Shown: in pieces, positions 19,418 to 50,278 of the stretch
Position numbering within the stretch: the stretch's first letter is position 1
How the letters are laid out: every line of letters starts with the position of its first letter
Source of the DNA: Patescibacteria group bacterium
GTDB taxonomy: Bacteria > Patescibacteriota > Patescibacteriia > JAHIZJ01
NCBI GenBank assembly: GCA_041650335.1
Contig: JBAZLK010000004.1
Location: 15,990 to 79,989, forward strand
Length of the DNA: 64,000 nt
Direction of reading: 5' to 3'
The notes under the pieces: model-generated
Databases searched by the model: none
What the model was told of the DNA's origin: nothing
Seen by the model: only the letters and a program-made list of their open reading frames with translations
Position numbers and translations under genes: made by a program

Positions 19418-20160
19418 TATTGAAAAAATTTAGAAATAATTACTTTCATCGGGAACACGATTACGGCACGGTAGATGCGGCGGATGCGCCAGGGCTGTTT
19501 CATGAGCCGGTAGAGCCATTCTAATCCCAGCGAACGCATCACTACCGGTGCGCGACGCACCTGACCTGATAAATAGTCGAATGAACCGCCGACGCCGACA
19601 GCGATCTTTACCGTTTCAAAGTATTGAAGATTCCGCGCCAGCCATTTTTCTTGGGCGGGCGCGCCGAACGCGAGAAACAGGATGGCGGGTTTTTTTCTGT
19701 TTATCCTCGCGACCAGAGCGTTGTCAGACCGTTTCCGGCCGAGAAAATCGTATTCGTTTTCCGCGCCGACTACGTGAAGTCCGGGATATTTTTCCATCAT
19801 GTTAACCGCCGTGCGATGCGCGATATTGTTAAGCGCGCCCAGGAAAAAGACGCTGAGATTCTTATCGCGCGCCTGGCGGCATAATTCTTCAACCAGCGAA
19901 ACCCCGGTTACCCGCCGCGCGATCGGCTGGCCGAGATACCAGCCGGCAAATTTTAAGCCGACGCCGTCCGGGATGGCCAGGCTGGCGGAATTAAGGATAT
20001 CACGAAATTCATGATCGCGGGTAGCTTGGATGCAGAATTCCGGATTTGGCGTAACGATTAAATGAGGCTTTTGATCAAACAAATACTGCTCGAGTTTTTG
20101 TTTTAATTCCTCGTTCGTAAAGCTGTCGATCTGAACGCCTAGTATCGTTACTTTATGCAT
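19417..20160 (-). CDS. WecB/TagA/CpsF family glycosyltransferase
   Basis: 247 aa, family-typical GT26 pattern (FFLGA, ILFLAFGAPAQEKW); 1-nt overlap with gltX. Confidence 0.7.
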   Translation of the reverse strand: MHKVTILGVQIDSFTNEELKQKLEQYLFDQKPHLIVTPNPEFCIQATRDHEFRDILNSASLAIPDGVGLKFAGWYLGQPIARRVTGVSLVEELCRQARDKNLSVFFLGALNNIAHRTAVNMMEKYPGLHVVGAENEYDFLGRKRSDNALVARINRKKPAILFLAFGAPAQEKWLARNLQYFETVKIAVGVGGSFDYLSGQVRRAPVVMRSLGLEWLYRLMKQPWRIRRIYRAVIVFPMKVIISKFFQ

Positions 20161-20695
20161 GAGAAAAATTACAGCGACCTAAAATATCATATGTCGAACC
20201 CGTTGATGACAGCGCGCTCCGCATGAGGTCAATGGTGGTGGCGAAAAACGATTTTTGTTCCAACACGGGCAGGGTATTCTTTATCTCGCGTTGCTTTTTT
20301 ATTTTCCCAAGCGTTATATGCGGATAATACTCTCTTTCTCCGATTAGTCCAATCGCCGCGGCTCGTAATCTGTGATGAAGATCCTTTTGTATATTCATGA
20401 GCTGTTTTGTTTTCTCAATTGACAACACAAGTCTATTGAAATTTCTATTTTGTAATATTGTAACGTTATTTATTGTTATCATGGGTGACTGATGATTTTT
20501 TGAAACTATTTGTAATATTTCAATCGCCCTCTTCGATTGCTCCTCAGTAATATTCCCGAGAAACACCAGCGTACAATGGACTTTTTCTTCGGATTGTAGG
20601 TAGAAATCATTGTTACTGAAACTTCCTCGGATAATTTTTCCATATTCCGTCAAAAAGTTTTTCGGAACAGGTATAGAAACGAATGCCCGTATCAT
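20153..20695 (-). CDS. thpR: RNA 2',3'-cyclic phosphodiesterase / 2'-5' RNA ligase (2H phosphoesterase)
   Basis: two H-x-T/S-x motifs (HCTLVFLG and HITLGK), 180 aa. Confidence 0.6.
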   Translation of the reverse strand: MIRAFVSIPVPKNFLTEYGKIIRGSFSNNDFYLQSEEKVHCTLVFLGNITEEQSKRAIEILQIVSKNHQSPMITINNVTILQNRNFNRLVLSIEKTKQLMNIQKDLHHRLRAAAIGLIGEREYYPHITLGKIKKQREIKNTLPVLEQKSFFATTIDLMRSALSSTGSTYDILGRCNFSHA

Positions 20696-20770
20696 GAATA
20701 GTAACTTGACATATTAATAAAAAACTGTCCTTTTCATCTTGAATTATAGCATATAATCAGGTATACTTTA

Positions 20771-21793
20771 ATGCGAATGAAAGAAGCACTTTTGTATTCA
20801 AAGCTAGAAAATAATAGTGTCCGATGTCATGTTTGCGCACACAACTGCCGAATAAACACTGGTCGTCGCGGTATTTGTGCGGTCAGAGAAAACATTGACG
20901 GTACGCTTTTTGCGCTAAATTACCGAAAAGCCATCGCTGAGGCTGTCGATCCAATTGAGAAAAAGCCTTTTTTTCATTTTTTTCCGGGAACGGCCGCACT
21001 TTCCATCGCAACGTTAGGCTGTAATCTTCGGTGCGATAATTGCCAAAATTGGGATATTTCACAGGGTTCCAAGGGCGGGAAAACCATTTCTGGGCACGAC
21101 CTCTCCCCTGAAGCGATCGTTGACCACGCGGTTGCGCGCAATTGCCAAAGCATCGCTTATACCTACACCGAGCCGACTATTTTTCTCGAGTACGCGCTTG
21201 AGACGATGAAATTGGCTCGCTCGGCCGGCCTGAAAAATGTCTGGGTTTCAAATGGCTACATGAGCGAACAAACGGTTGAACTGATCCAGCCGTATCTCGA
21301 CGCGATAAACATCGATCTGAAGTTCTTTGACGATAAAACATATTTGAAAAATTGCGGTTGTCATCTCCAGCCGGTTCTCGATAACATTGTCCGTTTCAAA
21401 AAGATCGGTTGCTGGGTAGAAGTAACGACACTGGTCATACCGGGCTTAAGCGACAGCCTGAGTACCTTTGACGGTATCTCAAAATTCCTTGCAAAAAAAG
21501 CCGGACCGGAAACACCCTGGCATCTGTCGCGCTTTGATCCCGATATCTCCTATCGTCTGACTGATGGCGTTGAGACTCCGGTTGAGACGCTTGAGCGCGC
21601 GATTGATGTCGGACAAAGGAACGGACTACGCTACGTCTATATCGGAAATATCCCGGGCCATAAAAGTGAGCACACCTATTGCCCGAAGTGTGGCGACATT
21701 GCCATCCAGCGCGACGGCTACCGCGTTACCCGACATGACAAAAACGGCCTCTGTCCAAAATGTAAGATGAACATAAATATTATTCAACAATAA
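20771..21793 (+). CDS. amrS: AmmeMemoRadiSam system radical SAM enzyme
   Basis: N-terminal Cys cluster (CHVCAHNCRI ... RGICAVR) plus CX3CX2C radical SAM motif (CNLRCDNC); C-terminal CPKC...CPKC; 340 aa. Confidence 0.7.
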   Translation: MRMKEALLYSKLENNSVRCHVCAHNCRINTGRRGICAVRENIDGTLFALNYRKAIAEAVDPIEKKPFFHFFPGTAALSIATLGCNLRCDNCQNWDISQGSKGGKTISGHDLSPEAIVDHAVARNCQSIAYTYTEPTIFLEYALETMKLARSAGLKNVWVSNGYMSEQTVELIQPYLDAINIDLKFFDDKTYLKNCGCHLQPVLDNIVRFKKIGCWVEVTTLVIPGLSDSLSTFDGISKFLAKKAGPETPWHLSRFDPDISYRLTDGVETPVETLERAIDVGQRNGLRYVYIGNIPGHKSEHTYCPKCGDIAIQRDGYRVTRHDKNGLCPKCKMNINIIQQ

Positions 21794-23215
21794 ATGACCA
21801 TTATAAAACGAATCGTTGTCTCACTCATCATCCTGAATTTTATTATGCCGGCTCCGTTGCTGGCCGCCGTTTGTCATCCAAACAACCTCCTGTCCGATGA
21901 GGACCTCTTGAATTATCAATCAATGTCAAAGGACAGGATTCAAAAGTTCCTCGAGTCAAAAACTGGCGTTCTCGATACCTATACAACATCGGTTTTTGGC
22001 ACGAATATGTCCGCGGCTCAAATTATCTACGACGTTGCGCAGAAGTATAAGATTAATCCGAAGTATCTGCTCGTGCGCCTCGAAGTTGAGCAAGGATTAA
22101 TTTCTGATTCAAGCCCGACTCAAAACCAAATTGATTACGCGGCCGGATTTGGCTGCCCGGACGGCACCGGGTGTTCAAGCACCTATAAGGGTTTTTCCAC
22201 CCAAGTGATGTGGGCCGCAAAAATATTTCTCAATACGGAACTGGACAGCTATGGAAATCCCAAAGGCTATATTACCCGGATACGAAAGCTTGGCAGAACG
22301 GTCAGCGGCTGGGGTCCGTTCATCACCAAAAATACGTTGGATGGCATCGCGGTTACACCCGAGAATGCTGCCACCGCAGCACTCTACACCTATACACCCT
22401 GGGTTGGAAAATACGGCGGTGGCGACCTGCGTTGGGGCGGCAGTTCGCTCGTCTGGAAGAAATGGACCGATTGGTTTGGCAAGATTTACCCAGACGGCAG
22501 TTTGCTCCAGGTCATCGGCCAGCCAGCCGTCTATTTGATTAAAAACGGGCGTAAGCGGGCTTTTTGGTCCAAATCCGCGTTCCTGGCCAACTATAACCCA
22601 AAGAACATCCTGACGGTCTCTCAGAACGATATTGACGCGTACGAAGACGGACCGCCAATCAAGTTTCCTGAGTATAGCCTCCTCCAGGGTCCGGACGAAA
22701 AAACGTATCTCATAGCAGACAACGAAAAACATCTGATCGAATCTGATTCGGTCTTTCGCAAGATTGGCTATAATCCGGAAGAAGTTATCCCGGTCGAGTC
22801 CAGCGACATAAAAAGTTATCCGACCGGATACGCCATCACGATGGATAGCGTCTATCCAACCGGCGTGCTCTTGCAGTCAAAACAATCCGGCGCCGTTACG
22901 TATGTGAAGAACGGCACCCGATACGGCATCGTTTCGAGAGAGATACTGCTCTCTAACTTTCCGAAACCCCACCTCATCCAGGTAGACGAGTCCGAGATTC
23001 AGCAATACCGAGCCGGTCCGCCGCTAAAATTCAAAGATGGTACCTTAATTACTTCAAAAGAATCACATGCCGTTTTTGTCATCTCGAACGGCAAGCGGAA
23101 GCGCATTGCCTCGGCCGAGGCGTTTAACCAGCTTGGCTACAAATGGGAAAATATCGTCACCACGACGGATTTCGCTGTCCGCATCCATCCGAGCAGTCGG
23201 GTCTTAAACCCTTAG
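21794..23215 (+). CDS. Secreted hypothetical protein with four ~65-aa tandem repeats
   Basis: signal peptide (IILNFIMPAPLLAAV), repeated Y-[LV]-I/K-NG-x-[KR]-[RY]-x-I pattern four times in the C-terminal half. Confidence 0.4.
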   Translation: MTIIKRIVVSLIILNFIMPAPLLAAVCHPNNLLSDEDLLNYQSMSKDRIQKFLESKTGVLDTYTTSVFGTNMSAAQIIYDVAQKYKINPKYLLVRLEVEQGLISDSSPTQNQIDYAAGFGCPDGTGCSSTYKGFSTQVMWAAKIFLNTELDSYGNPKGYITRIRKLGRTVSGWGPFITKNTLDGIAVTPENAATAALYTYTPWVGKYGGGDLRWGGSSLVWKKWTDWFGKIYPDGSLLQVIGQPAVYLIKNGRKRAFWSKSAFLANYNPKNILTVSQNDIDAYEDGPPIKFPEYSLLQGPDEKTYLIADNEKHLIESDSVFRKIGYNPEEVIPVESSDIKSYPTGYAITMDSVYPTGVLLQSKQSGAVTYVKNGTRYGIVSREILLSNFPKPHLIQVDESEIQQYRAGPPLKFKDGTLITSKESHAVFVISNGKRKRIASAEAFNQLGYKWENIVTTTDFAVRIHPSSRVLNP

Positions 23216-23219
23216 GCTC

Positions 23220-24017
23220 ATGGCACTCGTTGTTGCCGGTTTTGTCCCGCATCCGCCGATTATTGTTGCCGGTATCGGTCAGCCAAACGATCTCACGCTG
23301 GTTACGAAAACGCGCCAGGCAATGTCACGCTTGGCCGTTTTATATCGCGAGGCGAAACCAGACATCACGATCATTGTCTCACCTCACAGCCAGCTTCGGC
23401 CGGATTTTTTTCTGATCAATACAGCGAATAATTTTTACGGTTCTTTTGCGCCATTCGGTCATGACGAAATCCACCAGGAATACGCTGGTTCGCCGAAGGA
23501 AGGCGCTGAATTATATACTTTGGTAGTAGCTAAGAATATCCCCGTTAATCTCTATAAAGAGCCAGAGCTTGATCACGGCATTCTCGTACCATTATCGTTT
23601 CTTGAAAGTGGTTCAAAGCCGGCGCAACTTATGCCGCTCAGTTATTCATTTTGCTCGATTGAACAACATCTCGAGCTTGGCCGCTGCCTGGGTGAATATT
23701 GTCGGACGTCACAGCAACGAATTGCGCTCATCGCGTCAGGTGATTTATCGCACCGTCTTTTCAAAGGCGCACCAGCCGGTTTCTCTCCGCGCGGAAAAGA
23801 ATTCGACCAAGAAATCATTGAGCTTATCGGACAGCGTAAGTATGAGGCAATCGCGTCGCTTGATCCGGACTTTGTTGAAGACGCCGGTGAATGCGGATAC
23901 CGATCGCTGTGCATCCTGATGGGAGCGCTTGAGTCTGAGTTAGCCCAGCCGAACATTTTATCATATGAAGGCCCGTTCGGCGTCGGGTATGCGGTTATTC
24001 ACTTTCCAATCTCATGA
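23220..24017 (+). CDS. amrB: AmmeMemoRadiSam system protein B candidate (Memo-like / class III extradiol dioxygenase subunit B superfamily)
   Basis: N-terminal VAGFVPHPPIIV and SPHS motifs typical of LigB/Memo superfamily; 4-nt overlap with AMMECR1 gene. Confidence 0.5.
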   Translation: MALVVAGFVPHPPIIVAGIGQPNDLTLVTKTRQAMSRLAVLYREAKPDITIIVSPHSQLRPDFFLINTANNFYGSFAPFGHDEIHQEYAGSPKEGAELYTLVVAKNIPVNLYKEPELDHGILVPLSFLESGSKPAQLMPLSYSFCSIEQHLELGRCLGEYCRTSQQRIALIASGDLSHRLFKGAPAGFSPRGKEFDQEIIELIGQRKYEAIASLDPDFVEDAGECGYRSLCILMGALESELAQPNILSYEGPFGVGYAVIHFPIS

Positions 24018-24526
24018 ACTATTACGTTTCTCTCGCCCGCCAAGCGATACGATCATTCTTGCAATCAGGGATGATCCTGGCTGTCCCCGACGACACGCCT
24101 GAAGCGTTACGCCACGATCGAGCAGCGGTTTTTGTTTCGCTCCATAAAAACGGTGAATTGCGCGGCTGTATCGGTACGCTCGAACCGACGACGGATTGCG
24201 TGGCTGAAGAAGTAATCGCGAATGCCATCGCCGCGGCAACCCGCGATCCTCGGTTTGAACCAATGAAACTGTCCGAATTGTCACAGACAGATATAAAAGT
24301 TGATCGTTTGAATACCCCTGAGCCGGCGACACGTGGATCCCTGAATCCACAAAAATACGGAGTCATCGTCCAATCGCGTCAGCAACGAGGTGTTTTGTTG
24401 CCGGATATAGAGGGCGTTAACACGGTTGCTGAACAGGTTTCCATTGCCGCTTCGAAAGCCGGCATCGATGTAACAAAGGACAAATATTCCCTCCAACGCT
24501 TCACCATTACAAGATTTTCTGAATAA
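24014..24526 (+). CDS. amrA: AMMECR1-domain protein (AmmeMemoRadiSam system protein A)
   Basis: AMMECR1 signature AVFVSLHKNGELRGCIGT; 170 aa. Confidence 0.75.
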   Translation: MNYYVSLARQAIRSFLQSGMILAVPDDTPEALRHDRAAVFVSLHKNGELRGCIGTLEPTTDCVAEEVIANAIAAATRDPRFEPMKLSELSQTDIKVDRLNTPEPATRGSLNPQKYGVIVQSRQQRGVLLPDIEGVNTVAEQVSIAASKAGIDVTKDKYSLQRFTITRFSE

Positions 24527-46683: not shown

Positions 46684-46714
46684 AAAGAGCTGCCGCTTGG
46701 TAGCGGCCTACTGA

Positions 46715-47275
46715 CTACTGCTTCCCGACCCAGGTCCAGGTGCCGTCGGCGTTCCAGATGGGCCGATACCCGCCGAACTGCTGGCCCTTGTCGTTCTTGG
46801 CCCGACTCGGGTGGTTCCAGGTCCACGGCCAGGCCGTGACGCCGTCGGCCGAGGGTCGGCACCAGAGGTAGCACCCCTCGTCCTGGCACTTGCATTCCTT
46901 CAGCGGGATGACGAACTCGACCGCCTGGCTGCCATTGCCCACGTTCGCCACCGTGGGATCGGTTTCGACGCAGAGCAGGCCGCTCAGTCCGACCGTGTAG
47001 GGGCCGGGAACGGGGGTCTGGCCCGACCATTCGATGGCCTTCGGAAAGCTGACGAAGATGCGGATGTGCCACCCGTCAGCAGCCAGATACGAGTCGATCG
47101 GGTTCTTGTCCGACAGGGTCGGACGCGCCGGAGCCGCGGGAGCCGGGGTGACCGCCGCCTTCGCGCTGTCAGCCGGCGGCGGAGCCACCTGGCTGTCCTT
47201 GATCTCGGCCAGCGCGGGCTGGACGAGCGCGAACGTGACAACCGCGACCATGAGCACGAGCATGAGCTTCTTCAT
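46715..47275 (-). CDS. High-G+C secreted hypothetical protein, Cys-containing (186 aa)
   Basis: start refined to ATG at 47275 (MKKLMLVLMVAVVTFALVQPALA signal peptide) with SD GGAGGAATGGAGAA upstream; Ala/Pro-rich linker then domain with CxC...C...C (KECKCQDEGCYLWC). Confidence 0.45.
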   Translation of the reverse strand: MKKLMLVLMVAVVTFALVQPALAEIKDSQVAPPPADSAKAAVTPAPAAPARPTLSDKNPIDSYLAADGWHIRIFVSFPKAIEWSGQTPVPGPYTVGLSGLLCVETDPTVANVGNGSQAVEFVIPLKECKCQDEGCYLWCRPSADGVTAWPWTWNHPSRAKNDKGQQFGGYRPIWNADGTWTWVGKQ

Positions 47276-47333
47276 TTCTCCATTCCTCCGTGGGTTTGAG
47301 TTTCCGAACTTGCTACTAGGTCGTGGCGGGAAC

Positions 47334-48221
47334 TCAGGGGTTCCCGCCGATGTGGATGCCGTAGAGCCGTTCATCTCCGTCCCTGGGGTTCTTGAACTCC
47401 CCGGAGCCGGTGATCGCGTACTCGAAGGCACAGTACCCATTACCCAGATCGTGGATACACTTCAGGAGCGTCGCCTGTTCGAAGTTGTCTTCCGGACCGA
47501 AGTAGACGCCGGCCCGGAGTTCTTCGCCGGTGAGCTTCTGAAGCCTCAGGTAGCCCTTGGACGCCTTCTTGACCATCACCTTCTCGTTCTCGGTGGTCCA
47601 TCGCCCGCTGACGAACTCCATTGCGTGAGCACGATCGCGGAAGCCGGTCCATGTCCCCAGCCATTCGACCGGCTGGGTAGGATCGGCGGGCCAGTTTCGC
47701 CCGTCCGGCAGTCCGGTACCGGTGTACCAGATCTGCGCCGAAATCAGGGAATCAGGTCCGTCTGGGGACACCGCGATCGCCCCGTTCTCGAGGTAGACCG
47801 AGAAGGAACGACAGGTCTCCCACTCATTGGAGCCCGCCGATCCCTGAATCCGAGTGCCGCCGACCGAGATGTCGACCATCCGGTAGTAGCGGCTGTCGGC
47901 CGGATTCTTGGCCCAGAACCAGACTGGGATGCCCTTCTCGTTGCCCCACGACCACCAGAGGTAGTCCCCCTCGACGTGGCCGTCGGCATAGGTGGCAAAC
48001 GGCATCCTGATGTTCCGATCCTGTTCGTATCCAGGCACGACCGGACCGCTGATATACACCGGCCAGCCGTCCTCGGCCACCGCGCACGTCGCGGAAAAGC
48101 CGAGCGTCATCTGTTCCTGCTCGGACAGCCCGGGCGCGGTCATCGTCCACTCGTCACGGCTGCAGCCCAGGGGCATGATCGCCACCAGGACCAGCAGTGC
48201 CACCAACACATACCTGCGCAT
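47334..48221 (-). CDS. High-G+C hypothetical lipoprotein/secreted protein (295 aa)
   Basis: start refined to ATG 48221 (MRRYVLVALLVLVAIMPLGC - signal peptide ending in Cys) with SD GGAGGAAACCGAAG upstream; Trp/Gly-rich beta-type sequence. Confidence 0.45.
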   Translation of the reverse strand: MRRYVLVALLVLVAIMPLGCSRDEWTMTAPGLSEQEQMTLGFSATCAVAEDGWPVYISGPVVPGYEQDRNIRMPFATYADGHVEGDYLWWSWGNEKGIPVWFWAKNPADSRYYRMVDISVGGTRIQGSAGSNEWETCRSFSVYLENGAIAVSPDGPDSLISAQIWYTGTGLPDGRNWPADPTQPVEWLGTWTGFRDRAHAMEFVSGRWTTENEKVMVKKASKGYLRLQKLTGEELRAGVYFGPEDNFEQATLLKCIHDLGNGYCAFEYAITGSGEFKNPRDGDERLYGIHIGGNP

Positions 48222-48244
48222 CTTCGGTTTCCTCCTTCTTCCTT

Positions 48245-50068
48245 CTACCAGCTGTGGTCGAGGCTGATCCCCGCCCACTGCCGGTCCGTGTGGTACACCT
48301 TGCCGTTGACCAGATCCCGGTCGACGGCATCATTCAGGTACTTGAAGTTCCCCTTCAGACGCCACCACCGGTTGATCCGATACTCAATTCCGATCCCGGG
48401 GCCACGCCAGTCGAATGACCAGCTCGGGTTGTCGTACGACCAGGAGTCGTACGAGGCGTAGACGATGATGTAGTGGTTGAACTTGTACCCGATCCGTCCC
48501 TCGAACACCTGCATGGTGTCGGCCGGGAAGGACAGGGTCTGGTTGTCGAAGTGCCGTGACTGTCCGCGGCGGTACTGGACGTCGTACGACGCCCGGAAAT
48601 ACAACGGGTGCGGTTCAATCGAGAAGCTCCCCCCGATCTCGCGATCAAGGTTTGTTCCGCGCTTGAACATCGCCTCGTAGTACCCCAGCTTCGGGGTAAT
48701 GCCGAGCACTCTCGCGTATCCTCCGTAACCATCGAAGTACCGTGCGTCCTCGCGCGCCTTGATGGTCGTGGGCGAAATCTGCCGGTAGTTGATGAACTCG
48801 CGCTGGCCGGCCAGATACCAGGCGCCGGCTTCAAAGCCCGTACGCCAGGCACCCGCCTCGTCGCCGAGGATCCACCCCCGGCCGCCGAGCCGGTAATCGC
48901 CGGACACGTGATTCTTGTCCAGCGACGCCTGCTCGATTCGGATGACAGTCGAGAGATCGCGTAGGCGACCCCAGCCGTCGTAGCCGGAAATCCGTGGCAG
49001 CCACTCCAGTCCTCCCAGGAACGAATGCTGTCGGTCAAGGTTACCCTTCCGGTCTTTCCCGCCCTGGGAATACCGGTAGTCGAGCCACCAGACGCCGCCC
49101 GAGACGAACTCGTGAGACACCTCAGGCTCTTGGGCGTAGAACGGCCCTTCCACCTTGGGCTGTCGAGCCGACTCAGGCGGCGACACCGTCACCTGGCTTT
49201 CGGCTTCGTCCACGAACGCTCGCCTGACATAGGCGGCGTTGCCGCAGACGACGAACCGATACAGGTGGTACCGGTAACCCTCGTAGTCCACAAAGGGATA
49301 TTCGAGGGCAACGGTCCGGTCGACCGACTGTCGCGACTTCGGGTCTTTCCAGAAGCAGGCCGTCCTGCCCCAGGAAATGTTCTTGCCAAAACACAGGCCG
49401 TCGACGATGAGCGGTGACGCCTCAGTTGAGTACATCCAGACACTGTCCGGCGTACTCGCTTCAACGAGGCTCACCCACTCCGCCCGAACCTGGTCCGGTA
49501 CCTTGAAGGACTTGATCTGGTCCTTGAGCGGCGTCCGAGCCGGATCACCGCCGAGGAATTCCCAGCGACGGATGACCTGTTCGGGCTTCTGCGTGAAGAG
49601 ATGCTCGCCCGGCAGGACATACCGTCGATCAAGACCATTCCAGGCTCGAAGAGTATCAGCCGGAACGCCCAGCTCCTTCGAGAGGGCTTTCCAGCCTTCA
49701 CCCGGCTTTACGACTCTGGTGGGTGGCAACCGGATGGGTTCCGGCTGCTTTTCCGAGCGTTTCAGTTCGAGCTTGGTATCCTGGACGGCGACCCAGTTGG
49801 TTGAGTCGCAGTAGGCCAAGACCCGGTACTTCACCCAGAAGGCGTCCTTCCCCGTCTGTTCGACGCAGAAGTCCGTGGCCTTGGGCACCTGTATCCTGAC
49901 CACGCGGTCGTTCACCAGAACGCCCACGTCAACCGTGTTCCTGCCATTCGGCAAGCTCACGGCCTTCAGGTTGATAACGGTGCCCACCGGGGGCTGCGTG
50001 CACTGAGCCAGTGCATTGGTCGAGAAGACCAGCGCGCAGACGAACAACAGAACCGTGAACTGCTTCAT
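48245..50068 (-). CDS. High-G+C secreted protein with LysM-like domain and C-terminal beta-barrel-like region (outer-membrane-protein-like)
   Basis: signal peptide MKQFTVLLFVCALVFSTNALA; LysM-like segment VKPGEGWKALSKELGVPADTLRAWNGLDRRYVLPGEHLF; C-terminal ~300 aa with alternating hydrophobic/aromatic pattern rich in Y/W/G/R ending in ...ISLDHSW (terminal aromatic); SD GGAGGATTCGGTC before ATG. Confidence 0.5.
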   Translation of the reverse strand: MKQFTVLLFVCALVFSTNALAQCTQPPVGTVINLKAVSLPNGRNTVDVGVLVNDRVVRIQVPKATDFCVEQTGKDAFWVKYRVLAYCDSTNWVAVQDTKLELKRSEKQPEPIRLPPTRVVKPGEGWKALSKELGVPADTLRAWNGLDRRYVLPGEHLFTQKPEQVIRRWEFLGGDPARTPLKDQIKSFKVPDQVRAEWVSLVEASTPDSVWMYSTEASPLIVDGLCFGKNISWGRTACFWKDPKSRQSVDRTVALEYPFVDYEGYRYHLYRFVVCGNAAYVRRAFVDEAESQVTVSPPESARQPKVEGPFYAQEPEVSHEFVSGGVWWLDYRYSQGGKDRKGNLDRQHSFLGGLEWLPRISGYDGWGRLRDLSTVIRIEQASLDKNHVSGDYRLGGRGWILGDEAGAWRTGFEAGAWYLAGQREFINYRQISPTTIKAREDARYFDGYGGYARVLGITPKLGYYEAMFKRGTNLDREIGGSFSIEPHPLYFRASYDVQYRRGQSRHFDNQTLSFPADTMQVFEGRIGYKFNHYIIVYASYDSWSYDNPSWSFDWRGPGIGIEYRINRWWRLKGNFKYLNDAVDRDLVNGKVYHTDRQWAGISLDHSW

Positions 50069-50278
50069 GACCGAATCCTCCCCTTTTCAAACCGTGTGAC
50101 TGTCTATGCCGTTTGGTTAGCCGTCTATCTGTAGAACCAGTGACTTGGATCCGTAGATGAAATGTCAATTTGCATCAGTGAGCTTGCGTTGTCGCTTCCT
50201 ACCGCGTGCAAGAGAGCTCACACGTCCAGTACGATTCGCATCGTCCTAAACGTGGCAAGACCTCTTGCGAGGTTTGCC

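Follow-up and report, generated by a model that had tools for sequence, protein, structure and literature searches.

Within the 64,000 nucleotides of Patescibacteria DNA analysed here (the window), the genes of an AmmeMemoRadiSam triad are divided by a gene for a repeat-containing protein, here called REP, and this raises the question of whether REP takes part in the system or is simply located inside it. The earlier note proposed that REP is possibly a substrate or partner of the three proteins. The comparisons described below point the other way: REP is probably an ordinary exported wall hydrolase that occupies a fixed slot, stands outside the AmmeMemoRadiSam system and is found between amrS and amrB by happenstance. 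Literature searches on 'AmmeMemoRadiSam' gave incidental mentions only. A neighbourhood of a radical SAM gene, a 'ring-opening dioxygenase' gene and an AMMECR1 gene, with the LigB type of the second component noted, was described by Balaji and Aravind (2007; PMC2034487). The features of the locus are as follows.

20153 to 20695, minus strand: LigT/2H-phosphoesterase gene, divergent from amrS (Pfam LigT_PEase and AKAP7_NLS)
20739 to 20767, plus strand: sigma-70-like promoter candidate, TTGAAT-17-TATACT, 9/12 consensus matches
20771 to 21793, plus strand: amrS, radical SAM enzyme of AmmeMemoRadiSam, 340 aa
21794 to 23215, plus strand: REP, predicted to be an exported peptidoglycan hydrolase (GH73-like) carrying four wall-binding repeats, 473 aa
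23220 to 24017, plus strand: amrB, LigB/Memo-superfamily protein, 265 aa
24014 to 24526, plus strand: amrA, AMMECR1 protein, 170 aa
24528 to 27839, plus strand: priA-def-fmt, co-directional housekeeping genes, with synteny kept across the 80 REP loci surveyed

The ORF listing gives four open reading frames from amrS to amrA, all on the plus strand, and they lie as close together as the earlier note had described, with 0-4 nt among the first three and a 4-nt overlap of the last two. Read from the sequence, the amrS stop codon (TAA, 21791-21793) directly abuts the ATG of REP at 21794, the REP stop codon (TAG, 23213-23215) is followed after 4 nt by the ATG of the LigB-like gene at 23220, and the stop codon of the latter (TGA, 24015-24017) overlaps the AMMECR1 ATG at 24014 in the tetranucleotide ATGA. 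On this spacing it is plausible that REP is co-transcribed with the triad genes. The close packing goes on 3' of the AMMECR1 gene, with 1 nt between it and priA, 1 nt between priA and def, and a 4-nt overlap of def and fmt. Since the tight spacing also runs through priA-def-fmt, it is not peculiar to amrS, REP, amrB and amrA. The seven genes amrS-REP-amrB-amrA-priA-def-fmt all run in one direction as a single string, and the Patescibacteria genome that carries them is streamlined. The string is itself set in a conserved block of genes for housekeeping and the cell envelope, with an M23 peptidase gene, gltX, wecG/tagA and ligT on the amrS side and a GT2 gene after fmt. The locus is a concrete case of 0-4 nt spacing being no sign of a shared pathway in streamlined CPR genomes.

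The promoter candidate was found by a consensus scan in the 75-nt divergent intergenic region 5' of amrS, where a perfect TATAAT can also be read at 20752-20757; the matches are weak, and it was the sigma-70 consensus that was scored, promoters of Patescibacteria being uncharacterised. The same scan, in which consensus matches were weak throughout, gave no convincing terminator candidate between the genes, and searches for Rfam families and tRNAs over all 64,000 nt of the window found nothing.

All three proteins of the triad score above the curated TIGR cut-offs, so that the assignment made in the earlier note holds, marginally in the case of AmrB. AmrS matches TIGR04337 (AmmeMemoSam_rS) with 337 bits, well over the cut-off of 220, and also the Pfam Radical_SAM family. 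The CX3CX2C motif (C84, C88 and C91) and the N-terminal cysteine cluster (C19, C22, C26 and C36), both pointed out earlier, are accompanied by two CxxC pairs in the C-terminal part, and all these cysteines are invariant among 15 orthologues. AmrA reaches 133.4 bits with TIGR04335 (AmmeMemoSam_A, cut-off 99) and 144.6 bits with Pfam AMMECR1, and the motifs RGCIG and DPRF in its translation fit the signatures RGChG and DxRa given for AMMECR1 proteins (PMC2034487). For AmrB the match to TIGR04336 (AmmeMemoSam_B) is marginal, 33.4 bits with a cut-off of 26, and its Pfam score is far higher for LigB (112.9 bits) than for Memo (28.4 bits), which makes it the LigB or 'dioxygenase' type of B component also found in the published neighbourhood (PMC2034487). 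Residues H11, H56, H119, D175, H178, E224 and C225 are all intact, and a protein 100% identical to AmrB is named 'AmmeMemoRadiSam system protein B' at NCBI. Judged by these scores, by the signature residues that are kept and by the common orientation of the genes, the three are a bona fide AmmeMemoRadiSam set. The arrangement differs from the known system in that the genes are not contiguous: the predicted hydrolase gene parts S from B, and in relatives further unrelated genes part B from A.

An independent indication comes from the LigB-like protein. At loci that also contain AmrS or AMMECR1 the core residues H11, H56, H178 and E224 are intact in 15 of 16 cases, as compared to 19 of 54 at loci without them (Fisher p = 3e-5, uncorrected for phylogeny). 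The LigB-like protein thus frequently loses metal and catalytic residues where AmrS and AMMECR1 are missing at the locus, and this pattern gives independent evolutionary support for the three proteins working together. Even after loss of the canonical metal ligands the open reading frame is under purifying selection (dN/dS 0.07-0.28, with dS saturated in many pairs).

The ORF and an alignment of homologues bear out that a 473-aa protein with a signal-peptide-like N-terminus is encoded between the radical SAM and the Memo-like gene. Its parts, all on the plus strand, are given below.

21794 to 21871: signal peptide, about residues 1-26, conserved in the alignment, with an inferred cleavage site
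21881 to 22483: predicted catalytic domain with a lysozyme-like GH73-type fold, about residues 30-230
22484 to 23212: repeats R1-R4, in an A-B-A-B pattern
22484 to 22666: R1, residues 231-291
22667 to 22849: R2, residues 292-352
22850 to 23032: R3, residues 353-413
23033 to 23212: R4, residues 414-473

The N-terminal segment has a basic n-region (K5 and R6), a hydrophobic helix (residues 2-17) and an AxA-like end, and a signal-peptide-like N-terminus is retained across 39 homologues. The earlier count of four repeats stands; their length is 60-61 aa each and not about 65. They are homologous by profile-profile comparison (hhalign probability 97-99.5%), and BLASTP of REP against itself detected no repeats. 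In the AlphaFold2 model (pLDDT 89.5) Glu99, encoded at 22088-22090, ends a helix formed by residues 89-100. A Foldseek search with the model gave its strongest matches to EccB of type VII secretion systems (E about 1e-6) and matched the GH73 enzyme AtlE with probability 1.00.

The predicted fold of about residues 30-230 is the same as that of the catalytic domains of the GH73 enzymes LytB (7PJ3), AtlE (4PI7), Acp (5WQW), the glucosaminidase domain of Atl (6FXO) and FlgJ. The invariant glutamic acid at a helix end in REP is a candidate for the catalytic one of these enzymes. REP further has an aromatic Y-x-Y-x-P motif (Y198-T-Y200-T-P202), which resembles the YATDP motif of GH73, and, like these enzymes, a modular, predicted exported architecture of catalytic domain and wall-binding repeats. 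It differs from them in its binding module, which is of the EccB/PlyCB type and not choline-binding, SH3b, LysM or GW, and in sequence: the Pfam Glucosaminidase family (PF01832) matched none of the 39 homologues at E <= 1, and neither single-sequence nor profile searches of PDB sequences gave a match to REP. The GH73 assignment depends on the predicted structure. In Pfam and NCBIfam searches the only family matched was EccB, weakly, and no Pfam family reached its cut-off. The 60-aa repeat fold is common to REP, EccB and the phage wall-binding protein PlyCB, and the likeness includes the four-repeat A-B-A-B organisation, sequence similarity to EccB repeats and an envelope localisation, predicted in the case of REP; wall binding by EccB1 has been put forward as an untested suggestion (PMC4769845). 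The N-terminal transmembrane helix and the central domain of EccB are absent from REP, in which the repeats are instead fused to a hydrolase domain. REP is most likely a peptidoglycan hydrolase of GH73-like type whose wall-binding repeats resemble those of EccB and PlyCB, and its function is likely to be self-sufficient and extracytoplasmic.

Activity, export and physiological role, as read from the modelled fold and the residue patterns, would then be as follows. The signal peptide would be removed after Sec export, and the lysozyme-like domain would cleave the glycan strand of peptidoglycan, with Glu99 as the probable acid catalyst and the YTYTP motif lining the groove, while the four C-terminal repeats would keep the enzyme attached to the wall. 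The role would likely be daughter-cell separation or wall remodelling. AmrS, AmrB and AmrA would act together in the cytoplasm on a common substrate, as an accessory system at this locus.

More than 476 full-length REP homologues were found, from Patescibacteria in every case where the source names the organism. The family is 'hypothetical' in every source naming it, and the modelled fold would give it a function at that level. The neighbourhood was surveyed at 80 loci over about 8 kb on either side of REP, and presence and absence refer to this distance. According to HMM searches a LigB-like gene is present at 77 of these loci, AmrS at 15 and AMMECR1 at 14. The whole block is syntenic across the 80 loci, and the slot just 5' of the LigB-like gene is fixed for REP in Kerfeld-, Komeili-, Uhr-, Magasanik- and Veblenbacteria-type lineages. 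The arrangement seen in the window is not an isolated one: amrS lies at most 300 nt 5' of REP in 14 of the 15 related loci having both.

This adjacency, together with the amrS stop codon abutting the REP start in the window, favours REP as a substrate or dedicated partner, which AmrS would modify prior to its export and on which AmrB and AmrA would carry out the remaining chemistry. AmrS, a relative of the glycyl-radical-enzyme activases that work on proteins, is also weakly similar to enzymes of the PFL-activase type, whose substrates are likewise proteins. However, at about 80% of the REP loci (about 65 of 80) AmrS and AMMECR1 are missing locally, and REP is found unchanged in the same slot. 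Conversely, AmrS, LigB-like and AMMECR1 genes are contiguous without REP in two loci of other Patescibacteria (L083 and L088), an arrangement that the earlier note had itself named as a sign of incidental insertion. Among loci found through AmrS, the 12 closest ones in metagenomes also have no REP, and in 8 of these relatives the LigB-like match begins less than 100 nt from AmrS. Relatives in which the triad is split also contain unrelated genes in between, encoding a 227-aa membrane protein, an F420-ligase-like protein, an AIR-synthase-like protein or ClpB. Nor do the residues point to modification by a radical SAM enzyme. Conserved cysteines or tyrosines had been suggested as possible targets, but C127, the sole cysteine universal among the homologues, is equally conserved without AmrS, and the invariant tyrosine and glycine residues are conserved alike with and without it; no column reaches 93% conservation in the 16 AmrS-linked sequences while staying below 40% in the 65 unlinked ones. 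With its predicted export and its complete hydrolase and binding-module architecture taken into account, a role for REP as substrate or dedicated partner is very improbable. The adjacency and the abutting codons count to some degree against happenstance as well, and co-expression or indirect coupling of amrS and REP is possible. In a neighbour-joining tree of AmrS the REP-linked sequences fall in two places, a topology compatible with insertion of REP and with its later loss.

A close association is also seen with the LigB-like gene, which lies within 300 nt of REP in 68 of 73 loci, among the most conserved adjacencies of the block. The two could form a functional pair in cell-envelope biogenesis, independent of AmrS and AMMECR1, with the LigB-like protein possibly sensing, or acting on, a precursor of the wall or an isoprenoid carrier in the cytoplasm, and REP processing the product later. 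The purifying selection on LigB-like copies without metal ligands and the envelope-rich neighbourhood (M23, WecG/TagA and GT2) fit such a pair. At the same distance, though, Def-Fmt is kept in 59 of 60 loci, M23-GltX in 37 of 41 and PriA-Def in 46 of 59, and as M23-GltX and PriA-Def are functionally unrelated and conserved similarly, block synteny would explain the REP-LigB-like adjacency, although its place among the most conserved ones counts to some degree against the favoured reading of REP. Furthermore, the LigB-like protein lacks a signal peptide while REP is predicted to be extracytoplasmic, REP directly adjoins priA without a LigB-like gene at three loci (L006, L011 and L040), and the loci L081-L092 have LigB-like orthologues but no REP. 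A pair of this kind is unlikely. It is very unlikely that such a pair goes further and ties AmmeMemoRadiSam chemistry to envelope biogenesis, for instance by modifying an isoprenoid carrier or a precursor of the wall, with degenerate LigB-like copies as pseudoenzyme regulators left after loss of AmrS and AMMECR1; if true, the locus would be the first to place the system in a physiological setting. About as improbable is a REP that is not an enzyme at all but an EccB-like wall-anchored structural or secretion-associated protein, whose N-terminal domain merely binds glycan. The ranking of the Foldseek matches and the missing Glucosaminidase match would agree with this, but E99, Y198, Y200 and P202 vary neither among the 39 homologues nor among a set of 81 at 36-92% identity, the N-terminal domain matches catalytic domains, the anchor and central domain of EccB are lacking, and none of the genes near REP was recognised as belonging to type VII secretion. 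An exported wall hydrolase in a fixed slot thus remains the probable reading. The 'fourth partner' fails as a clue to what the AmmeMemoRadiSam system does, REP being an autolysin-type enzyme by its predicted fold and its position being probably explained by block synteny.

LigT, the 2H phosphoesterase, was considered as a better 'fourth partner', as its gene flanks that of AmrS with and without REP. It is found beside AmrS in each of the 14 AmrS loci that could be evaluated, but the HMM search also places it in 17 loci without AmrS, and the association is accordingly unspecific.

The four co-directional ORFs that the earlier note had described as an AmmeMemoRadiSam triad split by the gene of an exported repeat protein (REP) are all found in the window, at the positions given there:

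20771-21793, plus strand, radical SAM protein AmrS, 340 aa
21794-23215, plus strand, REP, 473 aa
23220-24017, plus strand, LigB/Memo-like protein AmrB, 265 aa
24014-24526, plus strand, AMMECR1 protein AmrA, 170 aa

Read directly in the sequence, the spacing is 0 nt between amrS and the REP gene and 4 nt between the latter and amrB, and amrB and amrA overlap by 4 nt (ATGA). The identity of the triad is supported, as all three proteins exceed the curated NCBIfam cut-offs: AmrS scores 337 bits against TIGR04337 (cut-off 220), the AMMECR1 protein 133.4 bits against TIGR04335 (cut-off 99), and the LigB-like protein 33.4 bits against TIGR04336 (cut-off 26). The CX3CX2C motif, the N-terminal Cys cluster and the two C-terminal CxxC pairs of AmrS are invariant in 15 orthologues, the AMMECR1 protein retains the RGCIG and DPRF motifs, and a protein identical to the LigB-like one is already called "AmmeMemoRadiSam system protein B" by NCBI. 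The window belongs to a public Patescibacteria MAG contig of 368,560 bp (ENA ERZ27247363). AmrB scores far better on Pfam LigB (112.9 bits) than on Memo (28.4 bits), which agrees with the 2007 description of the neighbourhood as a radical SAM protein, a "ring-opening dioxygenase" and AMMECR1 (PMC2034487).

Downstream of amrA the genes remain just as tightly packed: priA follows after 1 nt, def after another 1 nt, and fmt overlaps def by 4 nt. The close spacing is a property of the genome, not peculiar to the four genes. Upstream of amrS is a divergent region of 75 nt, in which positions 20739-20767 give a weak sigma-70-like match and 20752-20757 read a perfect TATAAT, and a scan for terminators between the genes gave none that was convincing. 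This region probably drives transcription of all seven genes, amrS through fmt, as one unit.

Eighty genomic loci (such as L006) were fetched through REP, and the neighbours within about 7-8 kb on each side were located with tblastn and with HMMs made from the matches. The whole block M23-gltX-wecG-(ligT)-...-REP-LigB-like-priA-def-fmt-GT2 is syntenic in these loci. Of the 80, 77 have a LigB-like gene, 15 have AmrS and 14 have AMMECR1. AmrS, where present, lies just upstream of REP (within 300 nt in 14/15 loci), so the gene order of the window is typical of the clade and not a private insertion. An alignment of 16 AmrS-linked and 65 unlinked REPs contained no columns conserved only in the linked set, and C127, the sole universal cysteine of REP, is conserved in both. 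The REP gene is independent of a nearby AmrS or AMMECR1, and the proposal that REP is a substrate or partner of the system is not borne out by these counts.

The converse search covered 80 metagenomic loci fetched through an AmrS alignment (such as L083). The 12 closest AmrS relatives (49-61% identity) share this Patescibacteria gene order, ligT lying upstream, and in all of them REP is absent within about 7 kb of AmrS. The LigB-like match begins within 100 nt of AmrS in eight. L083 and L088 have AmrS, LigB-like and AMMECR1 genes contiguous, followed by priA and/or fmt; relatives with an unbroken triad and no REP, which the earlier note had named as what would refute its proposal (incidental insertion), do exist. 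A LigT/2H-phosphoesterase gene at 20153-20695 (minus strand, divergent) adjoins amrS in the window; it does so in 14/14 evaluable AmrS-bearing REP loci, and is near AmrS in most REP-lacking ones (L082-L092). The association is not exclusive, since LigT is also found at 17 loci without AmrS.

The triad is often interrupted, and in no regular way. L138 has ClpB inside it. In L081, AmrS and the LigB-like gene are separated by an AIR-synthase-like gene, and the LigB-like gene and AMMECR1 by another radical-SAM gene, one resembling glutamine synthetase and others (read from translations). In other relatives the LigB-like gene and AMMECR1 have between them a multi-pass membrane protein of 227 aa with no Pfam match, in some cases together with an F420-ligase-like protein:

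L013:10183-10866, L014:10204-10887, L015:10214-10918, L018:10189-10872, L021:10190-10873, L031:10596-11279, L004:10964-11644, L047:10961-11653, L042:2729-3424, L005:3287-3973, membrane protein of about 227 aa
L004:10189-10938, L047:10175-10933, F420-0:gamma-glutamyl-ligase-like (CofE/PF01996), between the LigB-like and membrane-protein genes

The membrane protein is conserved in most relatives with a full triad, and the window lacks it; as an accessory component of the system it may be more promising than REP.

When it comes to the LigB-like protein, H11, H56, H178 and E224 are intact in 15/16 loci with AmrS or AMMECR1, and in only 19/54 loci with neither (Fisher p = 3e-5, shared ancestry of the loci ignored). 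Where both are present, every full-length copy has the complete H-H-H-D-H-E-C set. This pattern supports that the three proteins work together. The canonical His/His/His/Glu are often lost where AmrS and AMMECR1 are missing:

L009, L016, L022, L024, L026, L028-L033, L035, L039, L041, L044, L046, L048, L052-L054, L059, L063-L064, L067-L068, L070 and others, LigB-like ORF directly downstream of a REP homologue, residues often lost

The degenerate copies are still about 250-265 aa long, and their dN/dS of 0.07-0.28, where dS is measurable, indicates purifying selection and not decaying pseudogenes. They resemble a pseudoenzyme that has been retained or a protein put to a new use. Over all the REP loci, the LigB-like gene lies within 300 nt of REP in 68/73, the figures for Def to Fmt, M23 to GltX and PriA to Def being 59/60, 37/41 and 46/59. 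A functional pair of REP and the LigB-like protein that would tie the system to the cell envelope is considered very improbable, because neighbours in this block with no functional relation keep their adjacency equally well, and each gene occurs without the other (REP alone in L006, L011 and L040, the LigB-like gene alone in L081-L092). A co-transcribed gene string in which the triad and REP, as a wall hydrolase, are two independent parts is the reading we hold to be likely.

The REP family has more than 476 full-length homologues, all from Patescibacteria where the organism is named (including Kerfeldbacteria and Komeilibacteria), and labelled hypothetical in every source giving a name. Apart from one weak EccB match no Pfam domains were found on them, and REP has no sequence-level membership in PF01832. 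An AlphaFold2 model built from 39 homologues is confident (mean pLDDT 89.5). Fold matches to its N-terminal domain (residues ~30-230) include the GH73 enzymes Acp, Atl, AtlA and FlgJ as well as phage lysins and lytic transglycosylases, and Foldseek independently matched the GH73 autolysin AtlE (probability 1.00). Glu99, Tyr198, Tyr200 and Pro202 are invariant in 81 homologues with identity down to 36%, and the Y-T-Y-T-P motif bears an apparent resemblance to the YATDP signature of the GH73 Pfam model. Residues 231-473 form four homologous repeats of 60-61 aa in the order A-B-A-B (hhalign probability 97-99.5%). The two-repeat unit matches the phage family phrog_9616 in 39/39 homologues, so the pair circulates in phage proteins too, and it is plausibly a wall-binding module. 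The last two repeats (window 22850-23212, residues 354-466) match this 118-position profile, to which no function is assigned, with E = 2.9e-20. A resemblance of EccB1 repeats to PlyCB was noted earlier, peptidoglycan binding being suggested there without experimental test (PMC4769845).

From its modelled structure REP is predicted to be an exported modular peptidoglycan glycosidase, and would be a new, divergent autolysin that joins a GH73-like domain to EccB/PlyCB-type repeats. It would be exported via its signal peptide, bind the wall through the four repeats and cleave glycan strands with Glu99 as candidate acid catalyst, probably in cell separation or wall remodelling. The bearers are likely episymbionts, and REP might conceivably act on the host wall. 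Cys27 (window 21872-21874) directly follows the hydrophobic core of the signal peptide (LLAAVC) and is found only here and in a 92%-identical relative, the remaining homologues having AxA and then F/I-N; it may reflect a change to lipoprotein anchoring in this lineage, but the lipobox is atypical.

REP is a poor lead to the function of AmmeMemoRadiSam, for which Balaji and Aravind proposed RNA base modification (PMC2034487). AmrS, AmrB and AmrA would act in the cytoplasm on a common substrate. Isoprenoid modification is reportedly added as a proposed role in a later review.

Elsewhere in the window, a compositional island at about 46700-50100 (minus strand) has a GC content of 0.59-0.62 against about 0.47 in the rest. 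Its three ORFs, all on the minus strand, encode proteins of 241, 314 and 607 aa; the 241-aa and 607-aa ones have signal-peptide-like N-termini, and the 607-aa one also has a LysM-like stretch. O-antigen-ligase-like and glycosyltransferase-type genes flank the island, which could be a horizontal acquisition or an assembly chimera.
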